Of a stretch of 64,000 nucleotides of DNA, positions 29,004 through 36,486 are shown in pieces; within the stretch, counting starts at the first letter, position 1; each line of letters opens with the position of its first letter. The translations under genes and the position numbers were made by a program. The notes beneath the pieces were generated by a model. The model searched no databases. It had not been told where the DNA came from and saw nothing but the letters and a program-made list of their open reading frames with translations. The DNA lies in assembly GCA_049700215.1 (NCBI GenBank), contig JBNAVT010000005.1, positions 26,542 through 90,541 of the forward strand, given 5' to 3'. The DNA is from Thermoproteota archaeon (lineage in GTDB: Archaea; Thermoproteota; EX4484-205; JAAOZP01).

Positions 29004-30398
29004 TTGAATCAATCATCATGCTTGGAAACACTCTGTTCGAAAAACTGTACAGCATGCTCTTTCTTTAAGACATCTGTTCTAAAAAGTCGAACAACACGAT
29101 GTTTAACTAATATCACCAGGAGTTTTCTGTCAGCAATGGACAGAGGAAGATTATGGATAATTGGAGTAGCGCTCCTCGTTATTACTATGGTGCCACTCGC
29201 GGCGATGTTCTTTCCCTACCCGTATTCTCCAACTCAATCTCCCCAGGCAAACGAGGCTGGCTCAACGCCGCAGGGGATTCTGGAGGTCGTGAGGGCTAAT
29301 AATCAATTCGCCTTCAAGCTTTATTCCGAGTTAGTTAAAACCGAAATAGGTAATGTTTTCTACTCTCCTTACAGCATCTTCTCTGCTCTGGCAATGACGT
29401 ATGAGGGTGCTAGGGGAAAAACCGCGGATGAGATGGAAAACGTGTTCAACTTCCCAGAAAGCAGTGTGTTGAGGCCGAACTTTGCAGCGTTCTATAACCG
29501 TATTAATAGCGCTGTTGGAGAATATGAGTTGAGGACTGGAAACGCACTCTGGATTCAGAAGGACTACCCTTTTCTCGAGGAATATTTGAAGACTGTTGAA
29601 AAATACTACGGTGGGAGGGCTGCAGCCTTAGACTTTATTCATGGGGCTGAGAAGTCGCGTGAAACAATCAACGCCTTCATAGAGGAACAGACGAATCATA
29701 GGATTAAAGACTTGATCCCGCCTGGGGTTCTTGACAAGCTTACGCGGCTTGTTCTGACCAATGCTATCTACTTCAAAGGCGACTGGAAGATAGCGTTCAA
29801 CGAATCCCTAACCGTGGAAGAGGATTTCTGGATAACTCCTGACATAAGCGTAAAGGTTCAAATGATGCATATGCGTCCAAATGAAACAGTAAGGTTCAAC
29901 TACGCTGAGACGGGGGATTTGCGAATCCTAGAGCTGCCGTACAAGGGTGGGAATGTCTCGATGCTGATAATACTGCCGGAAAACATTGAGGCGGCAGAGG
30001 CATCGTTAACGGTGGAGAAGCTTGAAGAATATAAGGCTCGAATGAAGGAGGAGAGGCTGGACGAGATCTGCCTGCCGAAATTCGAGGTTGAAACCAAATA
30101 CTTTATGCGGGAGACTTTAAGCAACCTGGGAATGCCCACCGCGTTCACCAGGGAGGCGGATTTCTCAGGGATGACTGGCGGAAGAGACTTGTTTATCAGC
30201 CAGGTTATTCACCAAGCTTACGTTAAAGTTGATGAGAAGGGGGCTGAGGCTGCAGCCGCAACCGCTGTAGTCATGAAGCTAACCGCTGTACCGGAGGCTA
30301 AAGTCTTTAGGGCAGACCGCCCGTTCATCTTCATAATTCAGGATAAGGAAACAGGAGCCGTTCTCTTCATGGGAAGGATCAGCAATCCCACAGTGTGA
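29004..30398 (+). CDS. serpin (serine/cysteine protease inhibitor) with N-terminal membrane anchor; probable start at Met 29136
   Basis: Hydrophobic helix WIIGVALLVITMVPLAAMFF. Serpin core. Hinge and reactive-centre loop EKGAEAAAATAVVMKLTAVPEAKVFRADRPFIFII at approx. 30238-30330, with the conserved P17 E, P15 G and poly-Ala P12-P9. Confidence 0.85.
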   Translation: MNQSSCLETLCSKNCTACSFFKTSVLKSRTTRCLTNITRSFLSAMDRGRLWIIGVALLVITMVPLAAMFFPYPYSPTQSPQANEAGSTPQGILEVVRANNQFAFKLYSELVKTEIGNVFYSPYSIFSALAMTYEGARGKTADEMENVFNFPESSVLRPNFAAFYNRINSAVGEYELRTGNALWIQKDYPFLEEYLKTVEKYYGGRAAALDFIHGAEKSRETINAFIEEQTNHRIKDLIPPGVLDKLTRLVLTNAIYFKGDWKIAFNESLTVEEDFWITPDISVKVQMMHMRPNETVRFNYAETGDLRILELPYKGGNVSMLIILPENIEAAEASLTVEKLEEYKARMKEERLDEICLPKFEVETKYFMRETLSNLGMPTAFTREADFSGMTGGRDLFISQVIHQAYVKVDEKGAEAAAATAVVMKLTAVPEAKVFRADRPFIFIIQDKETGAVLFMGRISNPTV

Positions 30399-30551: not shown

Positions 30552-31058
30552 TTGGGAAGACGAGGGAAGCATCTTTTAATACTGCTGGCGTCCGCTCCGG
30601 TTTTACTCTGGTTTCTAGCATCCTTTCTCAATAATGCTGGTTCAAGGGTTACTAAAGAGTTTCAAAAGATGGGTACTGCAAAAATCAGGATTGTTAACGA
30701 TGAGAACCAGGTTCTGGAGCTTGAGGTTAAGGTTGCGGATGAGCCTGACGAGCGTGCAGCAGGCTTCCAGAACATCAGCAGAAGTATCTTGGAGCAGACT
30801 CTGATACTTTTCGTTTTCCCCTATGAGGTTAAAGGATTGTTCCATATGCGTAATGTTGAGGCAAGCCTAGACATAGCTTTCATCAAGGCGGATGGAACAA
30901 TAGTGGGGGTCGTGCGCATGGATCCAAGCCCGACAAAGCTATATGGTGTGGATGAAAGCTTCAAATATGCTGTTGAAGCTCGTGCAGGGTTCTTTGAGGA
31001 GAAAGGAATAACACCCTGGAAATCCCGGCTGATCGTTGAATCAGTCCCAACAGGCTGA
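30552..31058 (+). CDS. DUF192 (COG1430) family protein with N-terminal signal/anchor
   Basis: ...KIRIVNDENQVLELEVKVADEPDERAAGFQNISRSIL...GMLFVF-like core ...LILFVFPYEVKGLFHMRNV...DIAFIKADGTIVGV matches DUF192. Confidence 0.65.
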   Translation: MGRRGKHLLILLASAPVLLWFLASFLNNAGSRVTKEFQKMGTAKIRIVNDENQVLELEVKVADEPDERAAGFQNISRSILEQTLILFVFPYEVKGLFHMRNVEASLDIAFIKADGTIVGVVRMDPSPTKLYGVDESFKYAVEARAGFFEEKGITPWKSRLIVESVPTG

Positions 31059-31183: not shown

Positions 31184-34100
31184 ATGAAAAAATTTTATAT
31201 GCGTCTGCCAACCATAGAAGAAGGAAGAAAATTGTTAAACAGGTATGTGAGAAATAAGGGGCTACTTGCCGCTCTAATTCTGCTCACACTCTGCTTTCCA
31301 GCTGTTTCTTCCTTGAGAAGAATGCCTACCATAATGGTTTCGGGAGCACAATATGGCGAAATAGAATTAAACATCGGTTGCGACAGCCCAAGCATAACGT
31401 ATCATCAGAAATACGTGGAGGTTAAACTGGATGGTTTTTATACTTCAGGAGAACCCGGTAACCCGGAGCTCCCCTGCAGGTTTTTAGACGTTTTGCTTCC
31501 GCCCGATGTGAACACGAGCTCTATCGATATAGATGTTCAACTGGATGAGAGCTATGAGATAAACGTGACGGCGGAAGTAATGCCGGCCCCGCCTTTAGCG
31601 AGCGATGAGACGGTGGAATGGGGTGCTGGCAAGGAAATACGTGGCGATAAGAATCATCTCGTATACGGTAGGGGAGAATATTACCCGGATAAGGTTGTGG
31701 AGATTTACCGGGTTTCCAATAGAGGAATATATGTTTTTGCAAGAATACGCTATAACCCAATACAATACAATCCGTTGAAAGGGGTGCTAAAGATACATGG
31801 GAATGTAGTATTCAAGATCACTTATAGGCTTACGGGTAAGCGGGCAGCCATTGTTAGAAACACGATGGTTGAAAAAATCGCTGAGAATCAATTTGTAAAC
31901 TGGAATAGTGCGAAAGAATGGTATTCACCGTCTTTTCAGGCATCGGGCTCCCAATACGATTACATCATAGTTACTACGAACGCGATAAAAACAGGGAGTG
32001 GCGAGCTGGACAATTACGTGAATTATCTTCAGAACACTAGGGGTTTCCGGGTGAAGGTTGTTACAGAGGATGACTACGGGTCTGCAGCCGGCCAGCAGAG
32101 GGCTGTAAACATTAGAAACTGGTTGAGGAACAATTATCTAGTAATGGGAGTAAAATACGTGCTTCTCATTGGTAACCCTGATCCTGACGACCCGAGCAAT
32201 CTGTCTGACTATTACGGTGATGTTCCGATGATGATGTGCTGGCCAAGGGTTCAGGGTTATAACGATGCTCCTACGGACTACTTTTACGCAGACCTTACCG
32301 GAAACTGGGATACTGACGGGGACGGTTACTACGGGGAGTATGGCCAAGATACGGGAGTGGACTTCACGCCGGAAGTGTATGTTGGAAGAATACCTGTTTA
32401 CGATAATGATTACGCTACGTTAGACAGGGTTCTTCGAAAGATGATGAGCTACGCGTTTTCAGGAACGGGTTGGAGAAGCAGGATAATGCTTCCGGTAGCC
32501 ATAAGCAACTATGCGAATGAGGATGGCAATGGCTGGCAAAGAACAGATGGGTTGGACCTGCCTAAAAATATTGTTGAAAATATTCTTCCACTAGGCTGGT
32601 CTCACTACGTGCTTTACGAGAGGGCTGGTCGAGACCCAGTGCCTGAGACCGCGCCCTACTATTCTGCACCACTGACAAGGGACAACGTGTTTAACGAGTG
32701 GAGGAAGAGCTACGGGGTAGTATTTTGGTTTGGCCATGGGGGCAACCAAGGAGCCTACAGAAAGTATTGGGGTTTCGATGATGGTGATAACGTACCCGAG
32801 TCCAGCGAGATGAGTTGGGCGTCATTCTTCAGCTCTTCCGACGCCCCTGGACTCAACGATTCCACCCCATCATTCACGTTTCAATGCTCCTGCAACAACG
32901 GATATCCGGAGGATGAGAATAATCTTGGCTATGCCCTGCTTAAAAACGGCGCGATAGCAACGGTTTCATCCTCAAGAGTAAGCTGGTACATAATTGGCTA
33001 CTGGAGGCCTAGAATGCTTGCGGACAATATTGAAATAGGTTATCGCTACGTTGAGAAATTGTTAAAGAGTAAGCTTAGCGCTGGTGTAGCTCTCTACGAA
33101 GCCAAGGGGATGCTGCCTCATAATGACAGTGTCTGGTGGATGAACATGTTCGACTTCAATCTTTACGGTGACCCAAGCATCTCGCTGTTCGATTCAATGT
33201 CGGCAATCATCTTAGACTCGGAACCGCAGGGATCGGGCTTAGTGAGGGTTGACGGTCAGCCTGTTACTACGCCTACTCTTTTCACCTGGGAAGTGGGCTC
33301 AACCCATTTGTTGGAGGCGGCTTCAACAATCGATTTTGGGAATGGTGTGAGGTGTGCTTGGTATAACTGGAGTGATGGAGGACCTCAGAACCGTAATTAC
33401 ACTGTTCCCGGCTGTAACACTACCTTGAAAGCCTTCTTCAAAAAACAGTATAACGTTACCTTTAACGTTACGCCACTGGGCTCTGGCACTGTTACACCCT
33501 CTTGTTCAGGCTGGTATGACGAGGGTTCAACAATACAAATATCTGCAACCCCGGGTCCTGACAGCGTCTTCAGAAACTGGTTCTCAGACACTTCGAAGAT
33601 AACCATAGCTGACCCCGGTTCGCCGGATACCACAGCTACTATAAACGGCCCAGGCACGGTGACGGCCAACTTCACTGTAACGGTTACAAGCCTAACGTTA
33701 AGAATGATAAACAGCACAGTTCAAGCGGGAGTGGTCAATCTAACCGTTAAAATAATATCGCCCAACAACATTACAGGTGCAGAGTATGCTGTCGACGACA
33801 CTAATTCTCCAACTCCTATACCTTCTCCAGTAGACGGCGAATGGGATTCGAGTATAGAGTTCATCAAGATAGGCTTAAACGGTTCAACTTATGCTGACGG
33901 GTACCATATTATCTACATAAGGGCTAATGACGGTGAAAGTACGAGTGATTGGTTTGCAATACGTTTTCATGTCAGGAGTTTGGTAAAGAGGTATAACCTT
34001 ATAGCCTTACTACTGACTCCGCCACCTGATTATTCTGCAAAGGAAGTTGCTGAAGCTATAGGACTAAACACGGTACTTGTTTCTAAATGGAATGCGGCCA

Positions 34101-34228
34101 GACAAAACTTCATAAATTACTTGACTAGCAGGCCCCGTCCTGAGGATGACTTTAATGTAGAACTGGGTTTTGGATATTTCGTCTATTTGGCATCTGATCA
34201 AAAGTTTGTGGAGGTTGAATGGAAATGA
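31184..34228 (+). CDS. large secreted gingipain-like (Peptidase_C25, clan CD) cysteine peptidase homolog with C-terminal Ig-like domains
   Basis: Signal/TM LLAALILLTLCFPAVSS. C25-type start YDYIIVTTNAIKTGSGELDNYVNYL. DYFYADLTGNWDTDGDGYYGE...PEVYVGRIPV. His-Gly VVFWFGHGG (His518, nt 32735-32737). Cys FTFQCSCNNG (Cys568, nt 32885-32887). Then GYALLKNGAIATVSSSRVS. Confidence 0.7.
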   Translation: MKKFYMRLPTIEEGRKLLNRYVRNKGLLAALILLTLCFPAVSSLRRMPTIMVSGAQYGEIELNIGCDSPSITYHQKYVEVKLDGFYTSGEPGNPELPCRFLDVLLPPDVNTSSIDIDVQLDESYEINVTAEVMPAPPLASDETVEWGAGKEIRGDKNHLVYGRGEYYPDKVVEIYRVSNRGIYVFARIRYNPIQYNPLKGVLKIHGNVVFKITYRLTGKRAAIVRNTMVEKIAENQFVNWNSAKEWYSPSFQASGSQYDYIIVTTNAIKTGSGELDNYVNYLQNTRGFRVKVVTEDDYGSAAGQQRAVNIRNWLRNNYLVMGVKYVLLIGNPDPDDPSNLSDYYGDVPMMMCWPRVQGYNDAPTDYFYADLTGNWDTDGDGYYGEYGQDTGVDFTPEVYVGRIPVYDNDYATLDRVLRKMMSYAFSGTGWRSRIMLPVAISNYANEDGNGWQRTDGLDLPKNIVENILPLGWSHYVLYERAGRDPVPETAPYYSAPLTRDNVFNEWRKSYGVVFWFGHGGNQGAYRKYWGFDDGDNVPESSEMSWASFFSSSDAPGLNDSTPSFTFQCSCNNGYPEDENNLGYALLKNGAIATVSSSRVSWYIIGYWRPRMLADNIEIGYRYVEKLLKSKLSAGVALYEAKGMLPHNDSVWWMNMFDFNLYGDPSISLFDSMSAIILDSEPQGSGLVRVDGQPVTTPTLFTWEVGSTHLLEAASTIDFGNGVRCAWYNWSDGGPQNRNYTVPGCNTTLKAFFKKQYNVTFNVTPLGSGTVTPSCSGWYDEGSTIQISATPGPDSVFRNWFSDTSKITIADPGSPDTTATINGPGTVTANFTVTVTSLTLRMINSTVQAGVVNLTVKIISPNNITGAEYAVDDTNSPTPIPSPVDGEWDSSIEFIKIGLNGSTYADGYHIIYIRANDGESTSDWFAIRFHVRSLVKRYNLIALLLTPPPDYSAKEVAEAIGLNTVLVSKWNAARQNFINYLTSRPRPEDDFNVELGFGYFVYLASDQKFVEVEWK

Positions 34229-36078
34229 AAAGGTTTTCTATTAAGCGTTTTACTTCGCTAGCCATCTTTCTAGTATTAATCGTCACAAGTGTAAATCTCT
34301 ATATTAGAGCTCAAGTTCCATTGGTCGTAGACGGGTACATTACCATGCCAGACGGGTCCCCGGCCGCAGGAGCCTCTGTAACCGTAATTGTTTCAGGCGG
34401 ACCTTCAGACTCCACCAGTTCTGGGGGTGATGGTTATTACCGGGTTGATCTTGTGGTTTCACCAGGAACCCACACCGTTACAGTTAGTGCATCAAAAGAC
34501 AGTTATTCTGGTTCAAATACAGGTTCTGGCGAGGCACATATTCAAGTGAACGTACGTCTTTCAGCAGCGCCCCCACCCCCACCTCCTCCACCTCCCCCAC
34601 CACCTTCGAGAAAGCAGGTCAGCATTCAGCTTACTGTTCCAAGCGAGGCTGCCGTTAACGCTAGTGTTAGGATGATTGGAAAAGTTAATCCGAGGGTTTC
34701 CTCGGTATACTTGAAGGTTAGGAATCCGAAAAATATTCTGGATGAATATCAGTTGCCGGTTGCCTCTAACGGAAGCTTTTCATTCGATTTGACGCCTACG
34801 CTTTTGGGCATTTACAAGGTTTCAGCGTATTTTCCTGGTGACTCGGAGTATGAGCCTGCTTCAACACCCGAGTACTCTCTCCGGGTGAAAGCAAGGTCGA
34901 TTCTTAATCTGACGATAAGCCCGACTGTGGTGGTTGCGGGAGCCGAGAACATCAGTATAAGTGGAGGCCTTTATCCTCCTAGTGCTCAAAACGTTTCACT
35001 ATACTATTCTTTAGACAACGCCTCCTGGATTCTTTTCGCCGAGCTGAATGCCACAACAGGGGTCTTCTCACTAGTTTGGGAGCCGAGGGTCTTCGGAGAT
35101 GTTTTCATAAAGGCGGAGTGGGCTGGCAATGAGACTTACACGGACTCCGTTGCATATGGAAGGTTTCAAACAGTGTTGCCAAGCGTATGCGCATTGCAAG
35201 CATGGGTTGAGAAGTCTCCGATTAAGATTGGAGAAGAAATACGTGTTAGCGGGGTTCTTATTGGTGCTACGGATCCTGAAACCGCTGTGTTGACGATGCT
35301 TGTCTACGAGAATGGGGAGGAGGTTGAAACCATTACTCTAAGGCCCTCGCAGGATGGGGGTTTCACCGCGTCCTTTAGGCCCGGGTCGCCGGGAGTGTAT
35401 GTGCTTCTTCTCGAAGCTAGCGGAGTAAAACTGTTGAAAGCCATCAACATTGTTACAGTGACAGTCCTAGGGGAGGTGGTGTTTAAAGCGGTTAATTCAA
35501 CGGGTGGCCTGCTGGATGAAGCAGTGGTAGAGTTGAAGCATAATGGTGAGGCAAGTTCAGAATCCGGAGAGTTGAGGGCCATCCTGAGTTTTGGAGAGTA
35601 CAGGGTCATAGTCAAGAAGCTTGGGGTTGAGGTGTTCAACGGTTCCCTAAGCCTGGCGAGTAACGGTGCTTTCCTGGGTTTCCAAGGCCAGAATGCAAGG
35701 TTTCCGCTCCCCCTATCTAGTGAGCCGTTAGTAATTGAATTAAAGACTAAAACCTATTCTCTAAGTGTTCATGTGGTTGATGAATTCGGCGATCCGATGG
35801 GAAACATCGAGGTCAAGATGGCTTCTCCGGTTTTTCAAGCCTCAGGGGTAACAGGTGCTGACGGCCGGGTTGTTTTCTCAAACATTCCCGCAGGAAACTA
35901 CACTGTCGACACTCGGTTTGAAAGCAGGAATTTGAACCTTATTAGAAACGAATCCATAACATTGAAAGGATCAGGGTTGAGCTTGAAGATCGTGCTCATT
36001 CTTCTTGCGGTTGCCCTACTAGTCTTAAGCTTGGCTGTTCTCCACTTTGCTGGAAAAAGGCTTTTTGCAAAGAAGTAG
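34219..36078 (+). CDS. cell-surface protein with CarboxypepD_reg-like/Ig-like beta-sandwich repeats, poly-Pro linker and C-terminal TM anchor
   Basis: N-terminal signal LAIFLVLIVTSVNLY. GYITMPDGSPAAGASVTVIV...GGDGYYRV. 12-residue PPPPPPPPPPPP run. C-terminus LKIVLILLAVALLVLSLAVLHFAGKRLFAKK (TM plus basic tail). The start overlaps the stop of the C25 gene. Confidence 0.65.
   Translation: MEMKRFSIKRFTSLAIFLVLIVTSVNLYIRAQVPLVVDGYITMPDGSPAAGASVTVIVSGGPSDSTSSGGDGYYRVDLVVSPGTHTVTVSASKDSYSGSNTGSGEAHIQVNVRLSAAPPPPPPPPPPPPSRKQVSIQLTVPSEAAVNASVRMIGKVNPRVSSVYLKVRNPKNILDEYQLPVASNGSFSFDLTPTLLGIYKVSAYFPGDSEYEPASTPEYSLRVKARSILNLTISPTVVVAGAENISISGGLYPPSAQNVSLYYSLDNASWILFAELNATTGVFSLVWEPRVFGDVFIKAEWAGNETYTDSVAYGRFQTVLPSVCALQAWVEKSPIKIGEEIRVSGVLIGATDPETAVLTMLVYENGEEVETITLRPSQDGGFTASFRPGSPGVYVLLLEASGVKLLKAINIVTVTVLGEVVFKAVNSTGGLLDEAVVELKHNGEASSESGELRAILSFGEYRVIVKKLGVEVFNGSLSLASNGAFLGFQGQNARFPLPLSSEPLVIELKTKTYSLSVHVVDEFGDPMGNIEVKMASPVFQASGVTGADGRVVFSNIPAGNYTVDTRFESRNLNLIRNESITLKGSGLSLKIVLILLAVALLVLSLAVLHFAGKRLFAKK
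34567..34608 (+). repeat. CCN codon tract encoding a poly-proline linker
   Basis: gcgcccccacccccacctcctccacctcccccaccaccttcg encodes APPPPPPPPPPPPS inside CDS 34219-36078. Confidence 0.9.
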
Positions 36079-36099: not shown

Positions 36100-36486
36100 A
36101 TGCTGAATCTTTTAGTGGTGTGGATGAGGAGGGAAGGTAGCCTGTGGCTTGGCGCGTTCCTAGGGTTCATAATAAACTCTATCTTAGGCGCGTACTTTCC
36201 TGTTTTCGGCCCTTTTATCGGCGGCTTAATCGCCGGCTTAATAGCGGGGGGCGGGCCTGGTAGAGGTGCTCTCGCCGGGTTTCTAGCAGGAATATTCGGC
36301 GGAATAATCGCAACCATGCTTCTGATCATCGGTTTCGTCGGCGTCGGTGGGCTCCTCGCAGGGGCTCTCGGCGGATTGCTGGGTCTTATAGGAGGCCTGA
36401 TAGCTGGCGGTGCAATCATAGTTTCACTGGCATTCGGATCAATAATGTCGGTAATCGGGGGGGCTATTGGCGGGGTAGTAAGCTAG
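36100..36486 (+). CDS. small glycine-zipper-rich integral membrane protein
   Basis: 128 aa made almost entirely of GxxxG/GGxGG hydrophobic repeats (GGLIAGLIAGGGPGRGALAGFLAGIFGGIIATMLL...). About 4 TM segments. Only 22 nt downstream of the surface-protein gene. Confidence 0.5.
   Translation: MLNLLVVWMRREGSLWLGAFLGFIINSILGAYFPVFGPFIGGLIAGLIAGGGPGRGALAGFLAGIFGGIIATMLLIIGFVGVGGLLAGALGGLLGLIGGLIAGGAIIVSLAFGSIMSVIGGAIGGVVS

Follow-up and report, generated by a model that had tools for sequence, protein, structure and literature searches.

A C-terminal module of archaeal C25 peptidases and its downstream anchor gene: a possible protease-display cassette in Thermoproteota

The window analysed here is a stretch of 64,000 nucleotides from a Thermoproteota archaeon (GTDB lineage EX4484-205; JAAOZP01; assembly GCA_049700215.1, contig JBNAVT010000005.1, positions 26,542 to 90,541 of the forward strand), in which the gene at 31184..34228 (+) is a real open reading frame (ORF) of 1014 amino acids plus stop encoding a C25 cysteine peptidase. 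We find that the last 83 residues of this protein belong to an uncatalogued, mobile terminal domain family, and that genes carrying a single copy of the module are paired, statistically and across lineages, with a gene directly downstream that encodes a putative membrane-anchored partner. The module family, coupled to this SlaB-like anchor gene, plausibly constitutes a general protease-display system of the Thermoproteota. The extracellular peptidases of uncultured archaea are regarded as drivers of protein remineralisation in hot springs and sediments, and to our knowledge little is known of how such enzymes are retained at the producer cell, to its own profit, beyond the single case of STABLE and tetrabrachion. 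A preliminary description of this DNA had dwelt on an unusual catalytic cysteine and an expansion of C25 paralogs, a framing that proved ordinary and partly mistaken; the interest lies in the tail, which it had left as an unrecognised module. Residue numbers throughout are those of the 1014-residue ORF, as in that description.

An uncatalogued C-terminal module

The preliminary description had the protein ending in an unrecognised module of about 80 residues without a transmembrane (TM) anchor, and both statements were borne out. A hydropathy scan of the whole protein gives a single hydrophobic segment, at residues 24-45, and no C-terminal TM helix. No Pfam family matches the module even at E ≤ 10, none lies over it in 83 carrier proteins, and no NCBIfam model is matched by the whole 1014-residue protein. 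For the sorting domain of the type IX secretion system (T9SS) there was no Pfam or NCBIfam match on the tail, and the host is archaeal. Dockerin (PF00404) and the pre-peptidase C-terminal domain PPC (PF04151) were also without a match at E ≤ 10, and the AlphaFold2 (AF2) model of the module (predicted local distance difference test, pLDDT, 92.4) is of an alpha/beta type, beta-alpha-beta-beta-beta(-beta) with the helix at module residues 20-27, rather than a beta-sandwich. Foldseek found no neighbour of this model in the PDB or BFVD.

The consensus of the module is ..RYNLIAL..P....AsDlA.AiG.....i.kW....Q.F..Y.PG.s.pe.dF.ie.G.GYFvYL.....lvEV. When the module alone was the query, word-indexed homolog searches gave no more than 1 and 5 short proteins, whereas HMMER, run exhaustively over 1.84 billion representatives with a profile of the ortholog tails, succeeded (1263 clusters at E ≤ 1e-3, 216 at E ≤ 1e-10), the former figure being a minimum for the size of the family, in protein clusters formed at 50% identity. 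The module stands almost always 0-9 residues from the C-terminus, as a single copy or a tandem pair, and rare proteins have 4-8 copies, or internal or N-terminal arrays. Domains that occur together with it in the 83 proteins are CarboxypepD_reg, Big, MG2, PKD, CARDB, FG-GAP, beta-helix/NosD, Peptidase_C25 and Peptidase_S8. The single-copy hosts include several C25 architectures, S8 subtilases and PcRGLX-like proteins, all with signal-peptide-like N-termini.

Of the 120 C25 homologs nearest to the window protein, 22 have the module, and at least 19 of the 98 without it end in a hydrophobic helix and a basic tail. Several of these hydrophobic ends follow a P-G-F motif, which we take to be the PGF-CTERM signature, and precomputed Pfam lists place dockerin or PPC in the module slot of some further homologs. 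Proteins with dockerin, PPC, TM or PGF-CTERM-like ends include P0028, P0051, P0056, P0113 and P0120, the last two being PPC carriers. Because the module, a TM helix, PGF-CTERM-like ends, dockerin and PPC alternate at this position, the comparison suggests that the C-terminus in this clade of C25 peptidases is a slot in which surface-retention devices are often swapped.

The tandem-copy proteins seem to form a subfamily of different genomic habit. At L024:1-12907 (+) five consecutive genes on the same strand (254+, 961, 918, 623 and 722 amino acids) each end in a tandem module pair, and none has a partner gene.

Pairing of the module with a downstream partner gene

The C-terminus had been described as soluble, and it is so in having no TM segment, but it also forms the cargo side of a conserved two-gene cassette, whose second gene overlaps the C25 stop codon (Table 1). 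Throughout the Brockarchaeota the whole C25 neighbourhood is syntenic, which taken alone says little about a link between module and partner. Homologs of the partner gene were found directly 3' of single-module cargo in seven of the eight contigs looked up, with starts -10 to +2 nt from the cargo stop. The pairing persists beyond the conserved neighbourhood: the 59% ortholog P0016 is followed by a partner of 625 amino acids with a 4-nt overlap, a Thermoprotei C25 gene lying amid DNA-replication and tRNA genes by one of 420, two S8 subtilases by partners of 533 and 395, a C25/CARDB protein of 3029 residues by one of 839, and a protein of 1123 residues without any Pfam domain by one of 429. No partner gene stood behind one PcRGLX-like single-module host, behind a tandem-copy protein or behind the C25 homologs P0018 and P0021, which are without the module. 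At L022:4001-10280 a cassette of S8 protease and partner is followed by the gene for an S_layer_C (PF05124) protein and then by that for an S8 peptidase of 1265 residues, the whole being an envelope and protease gene cluster.

A scan of metagenomes with a degenerate DNA pattern for DF-x4-G-x-G-Y-F-[VI]-Y-L gave 58 loci, and a hidden Markov model search of the ORFs in them then identified C-terminal modules, 36 of them single-copy and 25 tandem-copy. These were dereplicated at 70% identity and at least 400 nt of downstream sequence was required. A partner head -3 to +15 nt from the cargo stop was present in 15 of the 20 single-copy clusters and in none of the 12 tandem-copy clusters (Fisher p = 3e-5). 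The Thermoproteota that carry the cassettes are related to one another and the samples are for the most part from related hot-spring communities, so that these counts are not phylogenetically independent. Of the five single-copy clusters without a partner head, three are fragments of less than 110 amino acids and two are PcRGLX-like. Among the positive metagenomic cargo the C25 peptidases show at least three architectures, and an S8 subtilase is also present.

The seven partners are mutually homologous (BLASTP E 1e-11 to 1e-146) and share one layout of signal peptide, head, stalk and TM, with a C-terminal TM helix and basic tail in every one. In the window partner a hydrophobic segment at residues 11-31, taken as the signal peptide, is followed by a beta-sandwich head of the CarboxypepD_reg type, a (Pro)12 linker, Big_3_5/Big_1 Ig-like domains and the TM helix. 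When the seven are aligned, 18 of the 24 invariant columns fall in the head (QVP-x-x-V-x-GY-x-x-MPDGSPA-x-GA-x-V...). Stretches rich in Glu, Lys and Leu that by eye look heptad-like and coiled-coil-like precede the TM helix in L014_420, L016_533 and L020_429. Against the PDB the partner profile gave only generic beta-sandwich proteins together with weak coiled-coil matches, and no cohesin model was matched by the partner.

Domain layout and prodomain of the C25 protein

The 1014-residue protein consists, in order, of a signal peptide, a gingipain-type prodomain, the catalytic domain, three beta domains and the module of 83 residues. The C25 ORF, the motifs and the order of prodomain and catalytic domain given in the preliminary description were all confirmed by an ORF check, by motif positions and by Pfam: YDYIIVTT lies at residues 258-265, PEVYVGRI at 396-403, FGHGG at 516-520, QCSC at 567-570 and RYNLIALL at 936-943. 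The interval between PEVYVGRI and FGHGG is 113 residues, where about 114 had been given. Membership of the C25 family is already on record and is not new, an identical protein (P0001) being listed at NCBI as 'MAG: C25 family cysteine peptidase [Thermoproteota archaeon]' (MAG, metagenome-assembled genome). Relatives with 58-77% identity are found in Brockarchaeota and Thermoproteota MAGs, and at 40-54% identity there are homologs in Methanophagales, Asgard archaea and Thermococcus.

Peptidase_C25 (PF01364) matches residues 260-668 over the whole profile (1-374/374) with 135.2 bits (cutoff 23, E 4.3e-39). Propeptide_C25 (PF08126) matches residues 89-241 with 22.9 bits against a cutoff of 22, and the N-terminus taken in isolation scores 26.8 bits. 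The order of the domains is thus the conventional one, and the matches lie well beyond what chance would give. A profile of 24 clade sequences searched against the PDB found the prodomains of Kgp (5mun, E 1.9e-8) and RgpB (4ief, E 3.4e-8), and in the full-length model the prodomain matches 4ief by Foldseek (E 1.2e-7, prob 1.00). On the strength of these profile and Foldseek matches the N-terminal region, earlier called propeptide-like, is a genuine gingipain-type prodomain. Apart from the prodomain, Foldseek with the full-length model returned generic Ig domains only, and phmmer of the protein against solved gingipains matched the Kgp prodomain alone. The resemblance of the first beta domain to an InlB B-repeat was judged by eye only.

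A proposed protease-display cassette

The reading towards which we lean, as somewhat the more probable, is that the protein is a secreted C25 zymogen of a Brockarchaeota-lineage archaeon from a hot spring and that its tail docks non-covalently on the anchor protein encoded downstream. The zymogen (clan CD) would be exported by its Sec-type signal peptide and held latent by the gingipain-type prodomain until this is removed, and catalysis would depend on His518 (in W-F-G-H-G) and Cys570. The three beta-sandwich domains may act as spacers before the 83-residue module, which has no anchor of its own and would serve as a docking domain, binding non-covalently to the product of the presumably translationally coupled gene 34219-36078. 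Its sequence predicts a type-I membrane protein in which a conserved CarboxypepD_reg-like head and a Pro-rich linker precede Ig-like repeats and a TM helix closes the C-terminus. Such a stalk would hold the protease out at the cell surface, where it could supply peptides to the cell. Export, zymogen activation, module-partner binding and the nutritional role are all steps that we infer.

More tentatively, and as a possibility to which we would give slightly less than an even chance, tail and downstream gene may represent an undescribed and widespread protease-display cassette of the Thermoproteota. Such a cassette would be slaAB-like, with a C25 or S8 protease in place of the lattice protein and with a docking domain of about 85 residues and new fold that would insert into the head of a SlaB-like stalk. 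A literal and limited search of the literature found no description of the module or of the cassette.

Several observations, in addition to the relatedness of the cassettes noted above, weigh against these proposals. The suggested binding of module to partner has gene adjacency as its sole basis. Three PcRGLX-like cargo lineages with a single module are without an adjacent partner, and tandem-module proteins never have one. In the window partner Ig repeats take the place of what looks like a coiled coil in several other partners. As regards the enzyme, a profile of the catalytic domain reaches RgpB in the PDB only at E 0.073 and over 55 N-terminal residues, a profile of the half containing His and Cys finds nothing there, so that a residue-level alignment with a gingipain catalytic domain was not obtained, and in the full-length AF2 model (13 orthologs) the catalytic domain has pLDDT <50.

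The tail may instead be a substrate-, glycan- or S-layer-binding module (CBM/SLH-like) acting independently of a co-transcribed envelope partner, an alternative that we consider unlikely yet the most serious of those weighed. It would fit the PcRGLX-like and tandem-copy proteins that lack an adjacent partner gene, as well as the 2-8 copies found in many family members, since tandem repeats are common in binding modules, and one cassette does adjoin an S_layer_C gene. What it leaves unexplained is the homologous partner with a strongly conserved head, encoded with overlapping stop and start codons, behind two unrelated protease classes in unrelated neighbourhoods. Nor is a role given to the partner if the tail is a transient PPC-like domain which aids export or folding and is then cleaved, releasing the enzyme free; this we regard as improbable. 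The position at the extreme C-terminus of secreted proteases agrees with such a function, and true PPC occupies the same slot in the two homologs named above, but the module has no similarity to PF04151 at E ≤ 10, its predicted fold is alpha/beta, and its hosts include non-protease cargo as well as proteins with tandem arrays at internal or N-terminal positions.

The catalytic dyad

The preliminary description had placed the presumed nucleophile in an unusual Q-C-S-C context with two candidate cysteines, likened to the caspase QACxG motif, and had asked whether the His/Cys pair is conserved. Conservation was counted over 121 homologs, of which 119 retain His518 and 119 Cys570; the pair is intact in the window protein. 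The sole exceptions, P0017 and P0019, have lost both residues together (H to Y and C to G) and retain Cys568. At position 568 the 121 homologs have Cys (63), Ser (30), Ala (14), Val (8), Ile (3), Gly (2) or Asn (1). Because His518 and Cys570 are so widely kept and are lost only jointly, while position 568 is variable, Cys570 is the predicted nucleophile and Cys568 a bystander, so that of the two candidates there is effectively one and the original active-site question receives a clear prediction.

The residues around the nucleophile are also well conserved (Q567 in 110, S569 in 113, N572 in 117, G573 in 120, P575 in 121 and E576 in 117 of the homologs). The consensus of the archaeal clade is Q-x-[SA]-C-x-N-G-x-P-E, and the window protein, with Q-C-S-C-N-N-G-Y-P-E, conforms to it, which removes the claim of an unusual context. 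In clan CD the catalytic His and Cys each follow a hydrophobic strand, as do the His and Cys244 of RgpB (PMC4357240). The same order is found here, His then Cys, each at the end of a hydrophobic stretch (VVFWF before G-H518 and FTFQ before C-S-C570), and strands at 512-516 and 564-568 are present in the low-confidence full-length model.

Two further readings were rejected on this conservation. That Cys568, or a QACxG-like Gln-Cys arrangement, takes part in catalysis at an unusual active site seems highly improbable to us: there are indeed two Cys two positions apart, and the preceding Gln567 is largely retained, but 48% of the homologs keeping His518 and Cys570 have a Ser, Ala, Val, Ile or Gly at position 568, Cys568 persists in the two homologs without the dyad, and the Gln stands at -3 from the conserved Cys, not at -2, so that the register of the caspase analogy is off. 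We give as little credit to a catalytically dead pseudo-peptidase serving as a structural surface protein, for although dead relatives occur in the clade, neither the window protein nor any of its orthologs has lost His518, Gly519, Cys570 or the invariant motif around them, and judged by these residues the window protein is not a pseudo-peptidase. P0017 and P0019 themselves, C25 homologs of about 40% identity that have kept the rest of the motif, are likely pseudo-peptidases.

Gene start, second C25 gene and neighbouring genes

Five orthologous loci (L001, L002, L007, L011 and L012) have in-frame stops at the equivalent of residues 1-16, and in L012/P0003 an ATG stands at the codon homologous to TTG 31232. 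These two observations indicate that residues 1-16 are probably untranslated and that translation likely starts at this TTG (residue 17), giving a precursor of 998 amino acids, in which case the listed ORF is 16 codons too long. The putative signal peptide that follows has a basic n-region, NRYVRNK, an h-region, GLLAALILLTLCFPAV, and then SS-L. The NCBI model of the identical protein (968 amino acids, start at Met47) would miss this conserved signal peptide (window 31184-31324). Upstream lies a TATA-like element, TTTATAAACATTTTTCC, of putative promoter function, which is near-identical and in the same place in L002, L007, L009, L012 and L013.

Table 1. Features of the C25 gene and its partner gene (window positions; all on the + strand)
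Feature	Residues	Position	Strand	Basis or remark
TATA-like promoter element (putative), 5' of C25 gene		31126..31142	+	TTTATAAACATTTTTCC; see text
Probable true start codon TTG	17	31232..31234	+	preceded by purine-rich GAAGGAAG
Signal peptide / N-terminal hydrophobic segment (putative)	17-44	31232..31315	+	hydropathy; kept in orthologs
Gingipain-type prodomain	~50-245	31331..31918	+	PF08126, PDB profile search, Foldseek
Peptidase_C25 catalytic domain	260-668	31961..33187	+	PF01364
His518 codon CAT, predicted catalytic His	518	32735..32737	+	W-F-G-H-G; conservation
Cys568 codon, variable neighbour, predicted not to be the nucleophile	568	32885..32887	+	conservation
Cys570 codon TGC, predicted nucleophile	570	32891..32893	+	conservation
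Beta domain 1	~672-757	33197..33454	+	all-beta, pLDDT 76-91; no Pfam match at E ≤ 10
Flg_new_2 / divergent InlB B-repeat	759-831	33458..33676	+	PF18998, E 1.9e-9
Ig-like beta-sandwich	~835-930	33686..33973	+	all-beta, pLDDT 80-93; no Pfam match
C-terminal alpha/beta module	932-1014 (83 residues, ~85)	33977..34225	+	HMMER family, AF2 model
Partner gene, 619 aa		34219..36078	+	overlaps C25 stop; alternative ATG 34225 gives ATGA overlap; GAGGT just 5'
Partner head, CarboxypepD_reg-like, then (Pro)12 linker	32-114 of partner	34312..34560	+	PF13620; invariant columns
Partner C-terminal TM helix, then basic tail GKRLFAKK	582-613 of partner	35962..36057	+	hydropathy 3.03

The window contains a second C25 gene (51132-55829, -) for a protein of 1565 amino acids with CARDB, Big_7 and FG-GAP domains, in which the C25 profile match is in two pieces (the best covers profile positions 229-371 at residues 1428-1561). 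The Cys of its FVFSMGCNTG motif aligns with Cys570. The two proteins had been taken as evidence for a lineage-specific expansion, which does not hold. They are barely related to each other (26% identity over 116 residues, E 0.028), yet the 1014-residue protein is 40-54% identical to its Methanophagales, Asgard and Thermococcus homologs; by this comparison the two genes are old, separate lineages of the family and not the product of a recent local expansion.

Two genes 5' of the protease is a serpin gene (29004-30398, +; PF00079, E 7e-120). Its orthologs are of 420-421 amino acids, from which the start is probably Met45, leaving an N-terminal hydrophobic anchor, RLWIIGVALLVITMVPLAAMFF, and the reactive loop has Thr at P1, inferred by hand count from the hinge. 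The gene between serpin and protease (30552-31058, +) encodes a DUF192 (PF02643) protein that is hydrophobic at its N-terminus. The serpin-DUF192-C25 synteny is found in the Brockarchaeota lineage only; with the synteny so confined, and absent at the 59% ortholog and in all other cassettes, the serpin was rejected as a functional partner of the protease. Just 3' of the partner gene is a Gly-rich and very hydrophobic ORF of 128 amino acids (36100-36486, +), of which only the first ~35 residues are conserved; the orthologous loci call genes of 113-120 amino acids there.

Significance and relation to known systems

If the proposal is correct, the combination of cargo module and anchor gene would be a general and testable mechanism for keeping peptidases at the producing cell, similar in function to cohesin-dockerin and tetrabrachion-STABLE but put together from unrelated parts, and it would improve the calling of peptidases as extracellular or cell-bound in metagenomic surveys. 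The module itself would add an uncatalogued domain family of the size given above to the databases, and module and partner could provide a thermostable docking pair for enzyme display.

Extracellular 'gingipain-like' C25 peptidases are known from sediment archaea (Thermoprofundales/MBG-D and others), where the genes are predicted to encode extracellular enzymes and are transcribed in situ (PMC6461988), and extracellular peptidases have been noted in Brockarchaeota (PMC8065059). The window gene belongs to the same clade of archaeal C25 genes as those from sediments, although module and partner gene were not found described in these reports in our limited literature search. With the gingipains RgpB and Kgp of Porphyromonas gingivalis (MEROPS C25, clan CD) the window protein shares the C25 Pfam domain, a homologous prodomain, the order of His then Cys in the dyad and beta-sandwich domains behind the catalytic domain, and the gingipains are likewise secreted and surface-associated. 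It differs in a catalytic domain too diverged for HMMER alignment to RgpB, in the Cys motif Q-x-S-C-x-N-G-x-P-E, in its archaeal host and in having neither the T9SS C-terminal domain nor haemagglutinin/adhesin domains. The gingipains proper (RgpA, RgpB and Kgp) are marked by an S1 pocket specific for Arg or Lys, with Asp163 in RgpB. The T9SS domain of Bacteroidota cargo, gingipains included, is like the module in its length of about 80 residues, its place at the extreme C-terminus and its occurrence on several classes of secreted protease, but it is restricted to Bacteroidota, is an Ig-like beta-sandwich and is cleaved by PorU, whereas the module includes a helix, can form tandem arrays and goes together with a gene for a non-enzymatic anchor.

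Cohesin and dockerin of the cellulosome offer a similar arrangement, in that a short C-terminal module common to different secreted hydrolases is here proposed to plug into an anchored scaffold. The components are nevertheless different: neither module nor partner matches its cellulosomal counterpart, and the predicted fold (beta-alpha-beta3-4) is not the duplicated Ca-binding helix pair of dockerin. In layout the partner resembles SlaB of the Sulfolobales, which has a signal sequence, beta-sandwich domains, a coiled coil and a C-terminal TM (PMC6911244). The partner too has a Sec signal, 2-3 beta-sandwich domains, an apparent coiled coil in several cases and a single C-terminal TM, and the gene order, a large soluble secreted protein and then a smaller anchor, is that of SlaA and SlaB. 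The upstream protein is a protease and not a lattice protein, however, the window partner has Ig repeats and no coiled coil, and the comparison made is one of layout. SlaB-related stalk proteins that are rich in Ig domains and anchored at the C-terminus are reported across the Thermoproteota (bioRxiv 10.64898/2026.08.21.746120). A functional parallel is the S8 protease STABLE on the tetrabrachion stalk of Staphylothermus marinus, the sole experimentally known surface-bound archaeal protease (PMC5744192). Tetrabrachion itself forms the S-layer lattice, and the comparison is by description. In that complex a long stalk anchored in the membrane carries, by non-covalent binding, an extracellular protease of a Thermoproteota species; the cassette cargo likewise includes S8 proteases, and by analogy STABLE and tetrabrachion offer a functional precedent for a tethered protease of the kind proposed.

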